DNA of 46,229 bases, taken from assembly GCA_015296065.1 (NCBI GenBank), contig DVDU01000250.1, positions 1-46,229 of the forward strand, read 5' to 3'. The notes beneath the pieces are model-generated. The model saw only the letters and a list, made by a program, of their open reading frames with translations, did not search any database and was not told the origin of the DNA. This document shows, piece after piece, positions 1 to 46,229 of this stretch. How positions within the stretch are numbered: position 1 is the first letter of the stretch; the number at the start of each line of letters is the position of its first letter. The DNA comes from Oscillatoriaceae cyanobacterium M33_DOE_052. Lineage in GTDB: Bacteria > Cyanobacteriota > Cyanobacteriia > Cyanobacteriales > Laspinemataceae. The position numbers were made by a program, and so were the translations under genes.

Positions 1-131
1 AGCGAGTCGATCAGGAGTTAAGCCAACTGACTCCGGCGCAAGTACAATCGCTCACCTCATTTGACTTCATCCTCGAAGCTCTGATGTTGGCTGCCTTCTA
101 GACGAGACCTTTTTGCTCATCTTCATTTTAA

Positions 132-353
132 ATTGGTATAACTAACACAGAGAACATCAAATTTGTAGAAATTGGTCCATCGGCTGGACAACTGGCAGGG
201 GAGTTACGGGCAAGATACAACCTGCAACTTCCTGATGCTTTGCAAATTGCTACTGCCTTGGTAGCTGGCTGTGAGGCATTTCTGACGAATGATGTTCAGC
301 TAAAGCGCATAACCGAGTTAAAGATTTTGTTAGTAAGTGAGTTGGAGGCGTGA
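132..353 (+). pseudogene. C-terminal fragment of a PIN-domain (VapC-like) toxin. The frame runs in from the window edge and is broken by in-frame stops at 99-101 and 129-131. No start codon.
   Basis: The translation ...IGPSAGQLAGELRARYNLQLPDALQIATALVAGCEAFLTNDVQLKRITELKIL has the conserved acidic residues and the hydrophobic/Ala-rich pattern of a PIN C-terminal half. The same frame upstream carries two stop codons. Confidence 0.4.
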
Positions 354-419
354 GGAAATGCAGCATTTGACGGCGACGCTGGAGGGGCAGTTTCGGACAA
401 CTCTCAGGAGGTTGGGGCG

Positions 420-608
420 ATGAGTCCGTTATTACAAGACCTATTGCAGCAAGCAGAGCAGTTGTCCTATGAGGAACGGTTAGAGTTGATTCGCGGTGTA
501 GCAGAGAGTCTGAAATCTCAGCCACACCAGACTAGCGGTAAACGGAAACTTAGTGAGTTTCGCGGGATAGCGCCCAACTTACTAGAGGGGCGGGATGCTC
601 AGGAATGA
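420..608 (+). CDS. Small 62-aa protein resembling a putative addiction-module antitoxin component (LSYEERLELI... pattern). It is an orphan, with no cognate toxin downstream.
   Basis: The ORF has an ATG start and the sequence MSPLLQDLLQQAEQLSYEERLELIRGVAESL... resembles the short cyanobacterial antitoxin-like family. It lies next to the PIN fragment. Confidence 0.35.
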   Translation: MSPLLQDLLQQAEQLSYEERLELIRGVAESLKSQPHQTSGKRKLSEFRGIAPNLLEGRDAQE

Positions 609-950
609 GTTAATGAGCTACGGGGAGAAAACGAGAAAAGCAGATATTTGAGGGATTATAAAGTTATACATTAAATAGCATTTTTATACTTTGTTCTACT
701 CCCACGGTTCCAGAAATTATACTACAAAAATTTTTTTCTCTCAGGACTTGACTTTTACTTCAACACAAGTTATACTGAAGGGGTAATGGTAAAAAACCAA
801 GCAGAGCGGGCAACTGGGACGAAAAAACCCTACATCCAGGTGCGGTGATCGCTCTCACCCAGTCTTGGCCTGTCGTATTACAAAATGTTACATTAAGGGT
901 GTGGCCTCCGAGCTGCCAACGAGCCCTGCCACAATCAACCTGCATATTTA

Positions 951-3598: not shown

Positions 3599-3632
3599 CA
3601 ACCCGGTTTCTCACAGAAACCGGGTTTTTTTT
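3599..3632. repeat. Paired AACCCGGTTTCT / AGAAACCGGGTTT palindromes followed by a T8 run. Likely an intrinsic terminator for the M23 gene; belongs to the ~65-bp dispersed-repeat family.
   Basis: The sequence caacccggtttctcacagaaaccgggtttttttt lies immediately after the stop at 3595. Confidence 0.55.
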
Positions 3633-5938: not shown

Positions 5939-6003
5939 AGAAACCGGGTTTCTGCGATAATCTTGGGTTCTCAACCGAAATTTGGTTAAGAAACCCGGTT
6001 TCT
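5939..6003. repeat. Copy 2 of the ~65-bp dispersed repeat (inverted orientation). It is followed by a 2.5x tandem repeat, caaggacaaaagaatccctacc, at 6021-6075.
   Basis: AGAAACCGGGTTTCTGCGATAATCTTGG...TTAAGAAACCCGGTTTCT is the reverse complement of the 986-1050 architecture. Confidence 0.7.
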
Positions 6004-15095: not shown

Positions 15096-15178
15096 TTTAT
15101 ATGTGGGGTCGGATCCGTTGTGCGCGAGGGCAATTTATGGCATGATGTCAGCGCTTGTGCGACCGGTGCGAAGGTTTT

Positions 15179-15223
15179 CTATGTGGGCGAAATGGCATTG
15201 GTGTCGAGGAATATGGAGCGCAT
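15179..15223 (-). pseudogene. Remnant of a PIN-domain (VapC) toxin gene: 14 codons (MRSIFLDTNAISPT) then a stop
   Basis: Its ATG lies 4 nt after the stop of the upstream RHH antitoxin gene. The N-terminal sequence has the M..LLDTN.. signature of VapC but terminates after 14 codons. Confidence 0.45.
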
Positions 15224-15229
15224 GATTGA

Positions 15230-15487
15230 TCACCATTGCTCTGGGTCGATGTTGCGAAAGCAGGCGGTATTGGCCTCAAATTCTTCTGCTTCCTGTTGGC
15301 TCCAGACCCCGGCTAATTCGCTCAGGTCTTCATGTCGTGGGTAGAGGGGTTTTTCCTGGGTGAGACCCACACTGCGATCGAGCAGACGCAGGACTAAAGC
15401 ATTGACGCTGATGTTTTCTTTTTTTGCCAGTGCTTTCAGCTTAGAGAGGGTTTCGGGTTCCAGTCCTCGAACACTGATATTTGCCAT
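15230..15487 (-). CDS. Ribbon-helix-helix (Arc/MetJ/FitA-like) antitoxin-type protein, 85 aa
   Basis: MANISVRGLEPETLSKLKALAKKENISVNALVLRLLDRS matches the RHH antitoxin N-terminal fold pattern (beta strand, helix, helix). It is followed by the PIN remnant. Confidence 0.6.
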   Translation of the reverse strand: MANISVRGLEPETLSKLKALAKKENISVNALVLRLLDRSVGLTQEKPLYPRHEDLSELAGVWSQQEAEEFEANTACFRNIDPEQW

Positions 15488-15557: not shown

Positions 15558-15925
15558 CCTAAGTCCAAAGTCCTAAGTCATTTGTCCCACAGAAACCGGA
15601 ACCAAGCTGCGAAAACCTAGGTTTGATACCGAGATACCGTGTAGGGTGGGCAGTGCCGATGATGAGCCAGATTCAATAGTGACAGGCATTTTGGTAGGCA
15701 CTGCCCACCCAGCCCGCGTCAAGGTGGCAAATTTTGTCACGGTAAACCGTCTTTTCTGACGTTCATCAAACCAGATTTAGGAGACCGAACCAGGGGCGGA
15801 CCCCAGAATTGTCAGAGTTACGAGAGCTGAAAACCAGCCTCCTCGTTAACCACCAAGACGCGGGCTGGCACTGCCCACCCTACTAGCTAGCTTGGGACAA
15901 ATGACAAAGGACTAAGGACAAAATT
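15558..15925. mobile_element. Nested MITE-like insertion. The core of about 243 bp (15641-15883) has terminal inverted repeats GTAGGGTGGGCAGTGCC / GGCACTGCCCACCCTAC and an internal third copy. It sits inside an outer inverted pair of STRR-type repeats (gtcctaagtcatttgtccc / gggacaaatgacaaaggactaaggac).
   Basis: The inverted repeats are read directly from the sequence. The region has no coding potential and lies between a TA locus and argC. Related GGCATTGCCCACC half-sites occur at 22865-22925 and 25655-25730. Confidence 0.5.
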
Positions 15926-16984: not shown

Positions 16985-17275
16985 ATCCTTTCTCCTTGAC
17001 AGATCCTTTCCTTTATATATGTAGTCACCTTTCGCCGGAATGGGCTGGATTTGACGCACAAAATTAAGATTTCAGCCTGTATCCCCCCGCCCAGAGCGGT
17101 CCCTCTGTGGCAGGTGGTCACCCATATAAGTTTTATCCCGATCGCTCCAGGCTTAATGAGTTTTTTTCTCAAGATGTCCGCTTTTGCTCTCAATCCGCCT
17201 CACCCCAACCCTAAAGCTACATCATGGCTGAGCTGTGGCGGAGATTTTGGTTTCAATCATACTGATAGTGGGTAG

Positions 17276-17530
17276 ATGGCAACCTGGTCTAACTACTATT
17301 TTGTAATAGTGGCAACTAATCCTCACTTAAAACAATTTGGCACTCGGGTGCGGAGTCTAAGAAAAGAGCGGGGGCTTTCCCAAGAACAGCTAGGGGAATT
17401 ATCCCAACTCCACCGGAATTACATCGGTGGCATTGAGCGTGGGGAAAGAAACCTCTCCTTTTTAAACATTCTCCGCTTGGCCAAGGGTTTGGGTATCTCA
17501 CCCAGCGAGTTATTAGAAAATATCTCCTAA
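17276..17530 (+). CDS. XRE-family (Cro/CI-type) helix-turn-helix transcriptional regulator, C-protein-like
   Basis: RVRSLRKERGLSQEQLGELSQLHRNYIGGIERGERNLSFLNILRLAKGLGISPSELL is a canonical XRE HTH. The true start may lie downstream of the annotated Met. Confidence 0.7.
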   Translation: MATWSNYYFVIVATNPHLKQFGTRVRSLRKERGLSQEQLGELSQLHRNYIGGIERGERNLSFLNILRLAKGLGISPSELLENIS

Positions 17531-17821
17531 ATATAGGTGACAATAAGTCAAGGTCAAAAATATTGTATTATATGGGATAATTTTAGGATATTCAAAATAG
17601 ACGACCATGAGCAAGTCCAGCCCCGACACGCCGAGATCTAGCCTTTATGGCGGGTCACTTTGGCGCGGCCAAAATACTGCTCTTAGCTAAATTCTGGGAT
17701 TATCCCTGATAATTATCAACAGGAATCGCGAAATGACTTCACCTTATGACCGACTGCTACCTTAAGATTGGGCCGCGAAAACCAGGGAATTAATTTACCA
17801 TTGACCCCGCCAGAAATTTGA

Positions 17822-18670
17822 CTAAAATAGAGACAGTTGGGCATCCCGCAACTGCTGTTGGGTCAGAAAATTATCGATGCGGTTAGCAGCGATATCGCAA
17901 TAATCCTGCCGAATTTCCAAGCCGATTACCTGTCGCTGGAGCGCTAAAGCTACTACAGCAGTAGTCCCAGAACCCAGAAAAGGGTCAAAAATGATGTCCT
18001 CGCAGTTGGAAGTAGCCTTCAGGATGCGTTCTATGACAGCGGCGGGAAATTGCGCGGGATGGGGGGTGCGTTCTGGTGATGACCGATTTTTACCCGATGT
18101 CACCTTGGGAAATTCCCATACATCCGTAGGATTTTTACCGAGGGAGTTAACTTTTATCTTGCCATTCTTTTTTTGGTGAGGATATTTTACATTTGGGTCG
18201 CGCACGTCATCCAAGTTGAACGTGTAATTATCGGGATTTTTCACATACCACAAAAATTTTTCATTTCGCGGGGAAAAGAAATGGCGCCCCGCAACTCCTG
18301 CACCGTAGTGCCAAATAATTTCCTGAATCAGATAAAAAGGAATTTTATCCCAAAGCAGGTAGGGGATGGGGATGGCTTTGGCTCGATGTGGAATGGAAAG
18401 ATAGCCTAAATTTAGCCAAAACGCACCATCAGCAACGGTAATGCGATAAATTTGCTCTATCCATTGGACACACCAATTTAAATAATCCTCTAAAGGGAGG
18501 GGTTTTTCATATTCTTTGCCAATATTATAGGGGGGACTGGTGACGGTCAGATTGATAGATTTATCTGGGATATGTGCTAATACCTCTAAACAATCCAAAT
18601 GATAAATCCAGCAATTAGGCGCTTGAAAGTAGGGATAACCCAAAGCGTTCACGATATCTGTAGCCAACAT
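17822..18670 (-). CDS. Beta-class DNA methyltransferase, N4-cytosine or N6-adenine. Motif IV (SPPY) precedes motif I (FxGxG).
   Basis: TSPPY lies near the N-terminus and DPFLGSGTT near the C-terminus. This order defines the beta-group amino-methyltransferases. The length is 282 aa. Confidence 0.85.
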   Translation of the reverse strand: MLATDIVNALGYPYFQAPNCWIYHLDCLEVLAHIPDKSINLTVTSPPYNIGKEYEKPLPLEDYLNWCVQWIEQIYRITVADGAFWLNLGYLSIPHRAKAIPIPYLLWDKIPFYLIQEIIWHYGAGVAGRHFFSPRNEKFLWYVKNPDNYTFNLDDVRDPNVKYPHQKKNGKIKVNSLGKNPTDVWEFPKVTSGKNRSSPERTPHPAQFPAAVIERILKATSNCEDIIFDPFLGSGTTAVVALALQRQVIGLEIRQDYCDIAANRIDNFLTQQQLRDAQLSLF

Positions 18671-26002: not shown

Positions 26003-26608
26003 ATGCGCGTCTACACTTCCATCCTCTTGTCCGGTCTGCTCCTCGCCAGTTTCACCAACAGCGCCCGAGCCATTTCATCTCGCAATGGCGAATCCTCCGC
26101 ACCCGCCACCGCCACAATCATACAGGTACAAACTGAAAAAGATTCCTTGATATCCCAGCCAGCTCTCACCGGTGAGTCCCACTGGGCCAATCTCAAACAT
26201 CGCGGTAGCGGTCGAGTAGAAACCAGCCAAGATGCTCGCAGTAGCGATCGCGTCAAGTCAGAAGATGCTCGCGGTAGCGGTCGCGTCGAAAATACCCCCG
26301 ATGCTCGCGGTAGCGGTCGCGTCAAGTCAGAAGATGCTCGCGGTAGCGGTCGCGTCGAAAATACCCCCGATGCTCGCGGTAGCGGTCGCGTCAAGTCAGA
26401 AGATGCTCGCGGTAGCGGTCGCGTCGAAAACAGCGAAGACGCCCGGGGCAGTGGCCGAGTGAAATCAGAAGACGATCGCGGTAGCGGTCGCGTGGAAAAC
26501 AACGAAGACGCCCGGGGCAGTGGCCGAGTGAAATCAGAAGACGATCGCGGTAGCGGTCGCGTCGAGAAAGATAACGCTGGTCGGGGCAGCGGCAGGGTGG
26601 AAGCGTAA
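26003..26608 (+). CDS. Secreted repeat protein: a signal peptide followed by about 13 tandem 11-aa units (DARGSGRVKSE alternating with DARGSGRVENTP)
   Basis: MRVYTSILLSGLLLASFTNSARA is a Sec signal. The 33-nt DNA units (gatgctcgcggtagcggtcgcgtcaagtcagaa) are arranged in 66-69-nt super-repeats. The antisense ORF 26011-26502 was rejected. Confidence 0.6.
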   Translation: MRVYTSILLSGLLLASFTNSARAISSRNGESSAPATATIIQVQTEKDSLISQPALTGESHWANLKHRGSGRVETSQDARSSDRVKSEDARGSGRVENTPDARGSGRVKSEDARGSGRVENTPDARGSGRVKSEDARGSGRVENSEDARGSGRVKSEDDRGSGRVENNEDARGSGRVKSEDDRGSGRVEKDNAGRGSGRVEA

Positions 26609-32084: not shown

Positions 32085-32310
32085 GCTGTGGGGTGGATGT
32101 GCGCCAGCATTTGGGGGGATGCCTGTGGAAAAACTGTGGAAAACTGCCCCAATTTGTCCCAGAGGAGAAACCCGGTTTGTTCACCAAATCCTCCTGATCA
32201 AACCTAGATTGTCGCAGAAACCCGGTTTCTGGCGGCGGTGAATTTTCCACAGCAAGGGGGGTATTTTTCCACAAAAAATGGGGTGTTTTTTCACAGAAAG
32301 GGGGCGATTT
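32085..32310. other. oriC: Chromosomal replication origin (oriC) core: a DnaA-box cluster between dnaA and dnaN
   Basis: TGTGGAAAA occurs twice (32114-32122 and 32125-32133). TTTTCCACA occurs twice (32233-32241 and 32255-32263). TTTTTCACA occurs once (32277-32285). Weaker boxes are near 32085-32098. A ~22-nt periodic GGGG...T5CCACA...A-tract pattern is present. An AT-rich stretch, tatattttag, lies at 32061. Confidence 0.7.
32156..32220. repeat. Copy of the ~65-bp AGAAACCCGGTTTCT-bounded dispersed repeat, inserted within the DnaA-box cluster
   Basis: AGAAACCCGGTTTGTTCACCAAATCCTCCTGATCAAACCTAGATTGTCGCAGAAACCCGGTTTCT. Confidence 0.6.
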
Positions 32311-46139: not shown

Positions 46140-46229
46140 GTTTATGGTAAAAAAAGATGGGGTGTTTTTTTTGTCAACTAACCCCATCTGTAAAAAATGC
46201 TACCTGAATTTTATCACAGTCACCTGAAA

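Follow-up and report, generated by a model that had tools for sequence, protein, structure and literature searches.

The window, by which we mean the whole 46,229-nucleotide stretch analysed here, carries the remains of toxin-antitoxin (TA) genes at three sites. At its start (locus 1) the probable end of an insertion sequence (IS) is followed by the 3' part of a vapC (PIN-domain) gene and by an antitoxin pseudogene. At locus 2 (15135-15487) an intact RHH antitoxin gene precedes a remnant of its vapC partner, and at locus 3 (45739-46140), near the other end, pieces of a DUF433 antitoxin gene and a DUF5615 toxin gene lie against a short array of heptamer repeats (Table 1). An earlier note had reported decayed TA loci at three sites, and remnants were found at all three, with several details corrected below. 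Its suggested alignment to intact homologues proved informative, as most of the lesions could be defined by comparison with relatives in which the genes are intact or broken differently. The retained toxin and antitoxin parts are 84-97% identical to intact homologues, which excludes chance similarity. An NCBIfam search gave sub-threshold matches only. Scanning of the window for tRNA and tmRNA genes found none, and there is therefore no tRNA-linked integration site. Rfam searches found no families in the whole window at gathering thresholds, and nothing in 600-1150 at E<=1.

Table 1. Features of the three decayed loci (window coordinates).
Feature	Positions	Strand	Basis and remarks
Probable right end of IS630-family insertion sequence	1-136	+	tblastn and inverted repeat
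Putative transposase C-terminal codons	3-98	+	stop TAG 99-101
21-nt putative terminal inverted repeat (CTCATCTTCATTTTAAATTGG)	116-136	+	reverse complement of L022 3486-3506, one mismatch
vapC (PIN) 3' fragment, ~72 codons	137-353	+	stop 351-353; Pfam PIN
Antitoxin pseudogene, 62-codon ORF	420-608	+	TGA 606-608 in place of conserved Trp codon
Untranslated 3' remainder of antitoxin	609-661	+	ancestral stop 659-661; 7-nt deletion (TGGGAAG) between 629 and 630
vapC remnant	15135-15223	-	codons 1-10 (15223-15194), then last 19 codons and stop (15194-15135), out of frame
Intact RHH (FitA-like) antitoxin gene, 85 codons	15230-15487	-	PF22513, 27.8 bits against a cut-off of 27
Short imperfect heptamer array (TTGGTCA/TTTGTCC units)	45721-45753	.	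TRF
DUF5615 (PIN-like) toxin, codons 1-46 of ~116	45754-45891	-	identity to WP_011153778
DUF433 antitoxin remnant	45908-46092	-	Pfam DUF433, E 4.5e-18; ancestral stop 45875-45877

The PIN sequence at locus 1 is read in frame +3 from 132 to 353 and matches the Pfam PIN profile (E 7.5e-9) at positions 65-119 of 120; the N-terminal half of the domain is missing from the window. The fragment had been described as carrying in-frame stops. Such stops do exist upstream of it (TAG 99-101 and TAA 129-131), but both lie within the end of a probable IS630-type element and not in PIN sequence, and the gene appears to have been severed by insertion of that element rather than worn down by stop mutations. 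Position 1 of the contig falls inside the IS. In tblastn searches the 33-residue translation of 3-98 gave weak matches (E 0.06-2) on cyanobacterial plasmids, to the last ~31 codons of genes annotated as IS630 transposases; among the matches listed, most were to transposases, and those that were named all belonged to the IS630 family. The 21-nt repeat at the border of the element matches at 20 of 21 positions a repeat on L022 (k141_1366144), another contig from the same metagenome, so that the two ends lie on different contigs. The dinucleotide TA is found on both outer flanks of the repeats, the window side having one TA more.

L022 carries, in order, an antitoxin gene (83 residues), a PIN gene (146 residues), a second antitoxin gene (83 residues) and about 78 codons of a second PIN gene, after which come the 21-nt repeat and the start of an ORF with a weak likeness (E 4) to a helix-turn-helix-domain ORF on a Nostoc plasmid. 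This 78-codon N-terminal half and the C-terminal half in the window are complementary parts of the 146-residue PIN alignment, and the last 46 codons of the window fragment share 92-94% nucleotide identity with the intact PIN genes of L022 and L021 (see below). We infer the insertion of an IS630-type element into a single 146-codon vapC gene, and an assembly break within the IS. The two contigs would then be connected through one IS copy, although the extra TA means that the PIN halves do not fit together exactly if a simple TA duplication is assumed.

Downstream, the gene at 420-608 belongs to a family of antitoxins of 81-84 residues (109 homologues, no Pfam match) marked by a DAQEW motif and called DUF2281-like by some sources. 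Its members lie directly 5' of VapC genes on the Calothrix PCC 6303 plasmid pCAL6303.03 and in L021 and L022. The earlier note had treated this gene as an orphan antitoxin; the homology holds, but it is not an intact retained gene. Codon 63, the conserved Trp of the DAQ(E/D)W motif, has changed from TGG to TGA, and a three-way nucleotide alignment of the window, L021 and L006 places the 7-nt deletion 21 nt past the TGA codon. The syntenic contig L021 (GCA_013573125.1; 92-95% nucleotide identity) has the order AT1 (82 residues), PIN1 (146 residues, intact) and AT2 (82 residues, intact), followed by the same 134- and 165-residue genes as in the window. Its AT2 keeps TGG, where the window and L006 (92.8% identity) share both the TGA and the 7-nt deletion; in L006 a C5 DNA methylase gene precedes the antitoxin, where the window has the PIN gene. 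No gene was called in the 460 nt downstream of AT2 in L021, and translations of ~500 nt downstream of the 62-codon ORF in the window revealed no PIN-like sequence.

On this sequence evidence, the 420-608 gene is not the cognate partner of the PIN fragment but its neighbour in a tandem array; the fragment is the toxin part of the preceding cassette and therefore lies 5' of the antitoxin remnant. Locus 1 would thus be the tail of a tandem antitoxin-VapC array whose last vapC was split by an IS630-family insertion, and whose terminal antitoxin, without a toxin downstream even in a relative, would later have gained a nonsense codon and a 7-nt deletion. The likely sequence of events at this antitoxin is that the toxin was missing first and that the antitoxin decayed afterwards.

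Some further features of this region may be recorded. In L006 (2726-3004) a C5 DNA methylase gene and a 58-residue ORF, possibly a remnant of a methylase C-terminus, precede the locus 1 antitoxin. We considered whether window 355-423, with this ORF of L006, might be left over from the C-terminus of a type I methylase (HsdM) and rejected the idea, the 66-nt spacer being the normal PIN-to-antitoxin spacer of L021 and L022. Beyond the pseudogene, the non-coding stretch 700-1111 is 92-95% conserved in L006 and L021, with no conserved ORF and no Rfam match at E<=1. It includes a good sigma-70-like promoter at 748-776 (TTGACT, 17-nt spacer, TATACT), and may be a small RNA or the long 5' leader of the 134-residue gene.

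At locus 2 the RHH protein has 13 homologues at 55-95% identity. These have at least 86 codons, and in the window the last codon, TCA, has become TGA. Oxynema sp. CENA135, Phormidium sp. CCY1219 and an Oscillatoria metagenome-assembled genome are the nearest named relatives by this gene, and the source is therefore probably a filamentous cyanobacterium of Oscillatoriales type; a tblastn search of the PLSDB plasmids with the RHH protein gave no match. The earlier note's description of an intact RHH gene followed by a 14-codon VapC remnant was borne out, except that the spacing is 6 nt and not 4 nt: the short ORF (15223-15179) starts ATG CGC TCC and reads through to MRSIFLDTNAISPT and a stop. 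The last 19 vapC codons, recovered by tblastn, follow in another frame (HFAHIENLRTGRTSADIMP and stop), and a full-length PIN toxin gene is missing.

The lesion is defined by L011 (ENA ERZ27299533 k119_915089), in which the gene order is N6/N4 methylase, HTH gene, asd, RHH, PIN and eno. The vapBC genes of L011 occupy the same site between asd and eno, with 92-95% nucleotide identity and an RHH protein 95% identical to that of the window, but there the PIN gene (PF01850) is complete, with 136 codons, and begins 3 nt past the RHH gene. The RHH gene likewise lies a few nucleotides upstream of the PIN gene in L017 and L025 (3 nt in the latter). BLAST and an alignment of the junction show that the window lacks 322 nt, corresponding to L011 4164-4485, with the gap between two GCC triplets. 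A microhomology (GCC) deletion would account for the loss of these 322 nt of vapC with the RHH antitoxin left intact.

We surveyed this RHH family at nine distinct loci, including those of Oxynema, Phormidium and the Oscillatoria genome named above; scans of genomes and of metagenomes with the RHH alignment each contributed two. The RHH gene was intact at all nine. The vapC gene was intact at only three (L011, L017 and L025/L026) and inactivated at the remaining six by six different lesions: the 322-nt deletion in the window; deletion of about codons 9-134 between GACACCAATGCC-like repeats in L010/L014 (Oxynema and Phormidium); deletion of about codons 6-117 at a CATTTTG repeat in L015; a 65-nt repeat element in codon 31, with further decay, in L016; deletion of about codons 10-41 and then an IS605-family tnpB gene past codon 69 in L012/L013; and a frameshift near codon 60 in L027/L028.

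Next to locus 2, between asd and the RHH gene, lies a strongly self-complementary element of ~270 nt (15629-15895), flanked by inverted heptamer arrays (15563-15589 and 15893-15919). Inverted repeats are nested within it, and it contains three copies of the motif GGCACTGCCCACCC, with alternative pairings. The element has no Rfam match and is missing from the syntenic L011, where the interval is 146 nt as against 342 nt in the window. At 17275-18670 an N6/N4 DNA methylase gene (282 residues, PF01555) adjoins an 84-residue XRE-type HTH gene, and the flanking gaps hardly seem long enough to hold a restriction enzyme gene. This could be an orphan methylase, or else what is left of a restriction-modification module, in parallel with the TA remnants. 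TA cassettes also adjoin DNA-modification genes on the Synechocystis plasmid pSYSG (a restriction subunit S gene) and in L006 (the C5 DNA methylase).

The DUF433 family of locus 3 is very large and of tightly conserved length (74-75 residues). As the earlier note stated, the DUF433 gene has no in-frame start: there is no ATG, GTG or TTG between the upstream stop and M29. A premature TAA at 45908-45910 (GAA in L020, CAA in Synechocystis) ends the ORF 10-11 codons early. L020 (JGI 3300045900) is 97% identical to the window at the nucleotide level, over 46092-45755 only (338 nt). Upstream of 46092 the window is unrelated to L020, and with DUF433 homology first seen at about codon 5, the window has lost the first ~5 codons together with the start and the ribosome-binding site. 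As an alternative, the start might have been lost through point mutations (ATG>GTT, ATG>ATT when Synechocystis is taken as the reference); this was set aside since L020, at 97% identity, suggests a breakpoint near codon 5, though heavy local divergence may account for that 5' boundary instead.

The toxin half of the cassette had been described as truncated at codon 50. The truncation is there, but only 46 of the 50 codons of the ORF (45739-45891) are homologous, the last four being derived from the heptamer array, with a stop at 45739-45741. Codons 1-46 share 84.8% identity with a 116-residue DUF5615 protein of Synechocystis pSYSG (WP_011153778), although against Pfam DUF5615 they score below threshold (13.3 bits, with 23.8 required), and the homology to L020 stops at window 45755. 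A look-up of the exact 50-residue sequence found nothing on record, and a search with the rhodanese protein encoded next to the array, made for variants of the locus, returned only the same strain or a contig ending inside the heptamer array. In L020 the DUF433 gene is intact and the toxin gene has GAG>TAG at codon 45, after which normal toxin sequence continues (GFTLLLTTDQNLRYQQNL); as read from the alignment, the toxin gene of this close relative was hit first, and independently of the window. Locus 3 of the window would be a 338-nt internal piece of the cassette, cut on both sides, with a further nonsense codon in DUF433.

The heptamer array had been proposed as the disrupting agent at locus 3; it might have acted by expanding into the gene or through a deletion by slippage or recombination. 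The array abuts the last homologous toxin codon exactly, heptamer arrays vary in copy number and sequence among strains (window against L006), a TTGGTCA-unit array also lies just upstream of the L020 cassette, and intergenic heptamer repeats, which are known in cyanobacteria, have been proposed to favour polymerase slippage (PMC4679880). We nevertheless consider it unlikely that the array truncated the toxin gene. TRF finds 14 period-7 arrays in the window, none of them within an intact gene. They occupy 10 of 34 intergenic gaps by automatic count, or about 12 of ~35 intergenic regions when an array overlapping a gene end and the terminal array are added, and six have their start no more than 20 nt from a gene's 3' end (stop codon). 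The locus 3 array is short and degenerate (period 7, 4.7 copies, 84% matches, score 38) and begins 4 nt past the stop (45714-45716) of the convergent rhodanese gene; the simplest reading is that such an array belongs at the 3' end of the rhodanese gene and that the deletion happened to stop at it. No array is present where the cassette was cut at its DUF433 end, and the other TA lesions examined, involving IS630, the 65-nt repeat element, IS605, microhomology deletions and point mutations, are heptamer-free. An array that merely marks the junction of an ordinary deletion fits these observations better. That the truncations are artefacts of sequencing or assembly, with full-length toxin genes really present at these sites, is highly improbable. 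Both contig ends do lie in or beside TA remnants, where assemblies break, but loci 1 and 2 are recovered at 100% identity in separate assemblies from different samples (ENA, JGI and two Logan runs), both locus 1 antitoxin lesions recur in L006 at 92.8% identity, and the loss of 322 nt, the loss of more than 200 nt and the IS end are beyond base-calling errors. The lesions are mostly large deletions, truncations or an insertion, small frameshifts being a minority, and the truncations can be regarded as genuine.

The persistence of the RHH gene raises a different alternative, one compatible with the main explanation: selection may have kept the solo gene after toxin loss, as an anti-addiction or immunity gene (for example against incoming vapBC-bearing elements) or as a co-opted regulator. 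We hold this as a tentative and rather doubtful possibility. In its favour, the RHH ORF is intact throughout the survey despite six separate destructions of vapC in Oscillatoriales-type cyanobacteria, and dN/dS is 0.07-0.38, below 0.4 in every pair. L010 and L014 share their vapC deletion, hence their RHH divergence postdates toxin loss, and this pair too (Sd 6, Nd 7) gives a low ratio. The region upstream of the RHH gene, with an apparent ribosome-binding site and palindromes, also aligns closely between the window and L011. Against it, the statistics are marginal (p ~0.03-0.06 for L010 against L014, and ~0.05 for the length-weighted chance that all six lesions would land in vapC), recent toxin loss and a short gene may explain intact ORFs without selection, and the antitoxins at loci 1 and 3 did decay. 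Purifying selection on the orphan RHH genes is thus suggested but not conclusively so. In the explanation we prefer, ordinary decay after toxin loss, the RHH gene would have been protected until the toxin died and may remain under some purifying selection. Its recurrent solo retention is the sole mildly novel thread in these data.

The window as a whole, a metagenomic contig, is 100% identical to ENA ERZ27247351 k141_1518008 and JGI 3300006865 Ga0073934_10001942, and two Logan assemblies match part of it at the same identity. Separate assemblies are interrupted at two shared places, to within about 70 nt, as seen at both window ends (1 and 46229) and at the ends of L019 and L022. One shared break is inside the probable IS630 end and the other just past the DUF433 remnant, and a further contig terminates within the heptamer array. 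These shared breaks indicate that the TA remnants mark repeat-rich or strain-variable spots that fragment metagenome assemblies.

Other repeats were observed in the window. The heptamer arrays seem to fall into two groups: TTGGTCA/TTTGTCA-like arrays, mostly just past stop codons (4768, 15895, 29642 and 45721), and AATTATC/ATTGATA-like arrays, mostly beside gene 5' ends (10175, 21268, 25571, 33797 and 35314). The ~65-nt repeat element consists of AGAAACCGGGTTTCT, 35 nt and AGAAACCCGGTTTCT. It is present in at least four copies (986-1050, 5939-6003, 32166-32230 and 44232-44296), with partial copies near 3615 and at 45020-45054, and it is a copy of this element that breaks the vapC homologue of L016 (L016 ~990-1065). 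A 69-nt tandem repeat at 26200-26565 (5.3 copies, 90% matches, two alternating subunits of ~33-36 nt) lies inside an ORF (26003-26608) that has no significant Pfam match.

Taken together, the comparisons support the view that the three loci are decayed TA modules of three unrelated families with unrelated lesions. Very probably they comprise four TA gene remnants from three unrelated type II families, each broken by an ordinary lesion of its own and now eroding neutrally; the remnants are presumably non-functional. The earlier note also expected toxins to be lost and antitoxins kept. The comparative data agree with this, but the window's own loci 1 and 3 do not, as their antitoxins are pseudogenes too. 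In the relatives of locus 2, vapC is inactivated beside an intact RHH gene at six of the nine loci; the 97%-identical relative of locus 3 has an intact DUF433 gene and a toxin gene with a nonsense codon; and the syntenic relative of locus 1 has an intact antitoxin gene followed by 460 nt without a called gene. Decay in which the toxin goes first is thus supported by gene comparison, and the order of events, toxin first and antitoxin later, would follow because loss of the antitoxin with an active toxin would be lethal.

The contig is a clear yet ordinary case of TA module loss, usually toxin first. It offers support from the Cyanobacteria, where TA loci are very abundant and their turnover little studied, for the published model of two-step decay. 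These 46 kb and their close relatives form a compact, well-resolved natural set of examples of TA erosion, spanning IS insertion, insertion of a small repeat element, microhomology deletions, nonsense codons and frameshifts, and intermediate stages of decay survive in related populations. For annotators, short "orphan antitoxin" ORFs and calls of 37-62 codons at such sites are to be read as pseudogene fragments.

Several known systems bear comparison with these loci. Mazel and co-workers reportedly described, in 1990, short tandemly repeated repetitive (STRR) heptamers in filamentous cyanobacteria, which we take the window arrays to resemble in their tandem 7-nt units (TTGGTCA among them) and intergenic location; the window arrays differ in that no part in gene disruption is evident for them and that the locus 3 array is short and degenerate. 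A literature search for the TTGGTCA unit found nothing relevant. The pair on Calothrix sp. PCC 6303 pCAL6303.03 (WP_015201115/WP_015201114) is of the same two families as locus 1, with the conserved DAQEW motif in its antitoxin and a PIN C-terminus highly similar to the window fragment. Unlike locus 1 it is intact, and its antitoxin gene directly abuts the toxin gene, whereas the PIN fragment of the window lies upstream of the antitoxin. The closest annotated intact relative of locus 3 is the pSYSG pair of Synechocystis sp. PCC 6803 (WP_011153779/WP_011153778; L009), which has 84-85% amino-acid identity over the retained parts and agrees with locus 3 in gene order and in the way the toxin ATG overlaps the 3' end of the antitoxin gene. 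That pair is intact (74 and 116 residues) and has the restriction subunit S gene immediately downstream; locus 3, in contrast, lacks an antitoxin start and toxin codons 47-116 and has the premature TAA. A published prediction lists PIN-COG2442 (DUF433) among TA pairs, with its highest abundance in cyanobacteria (PMC2701414).

As for the process itself, decay of ccdO157 in E. coli (Mine et al. 2009, as cited in PMC13617665) and frequent TA pseudogenisation in Photorhabdus, mostly by toxin truncation and in two steps with the toxin inactivated first (Belot et al. 2026, PMC13617665), have been described. Since TA decay, the DUF433 pair and the heptamers are all on record, the window adds new instances only: well-resolved examples of a known process in known families, and no new kind of system. 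As in Photorhabdus, pseudogenisation is frequent and toxin truncation is the commonest first lesion. The present case differs in its host, probably an uncultured filamentous cyanobacterium (Oscillatoriales-like), in its TA families, and in its lesions, which include a probable IS630 insertion here and the 65-nt repeat element and an IS605 element in relatives.
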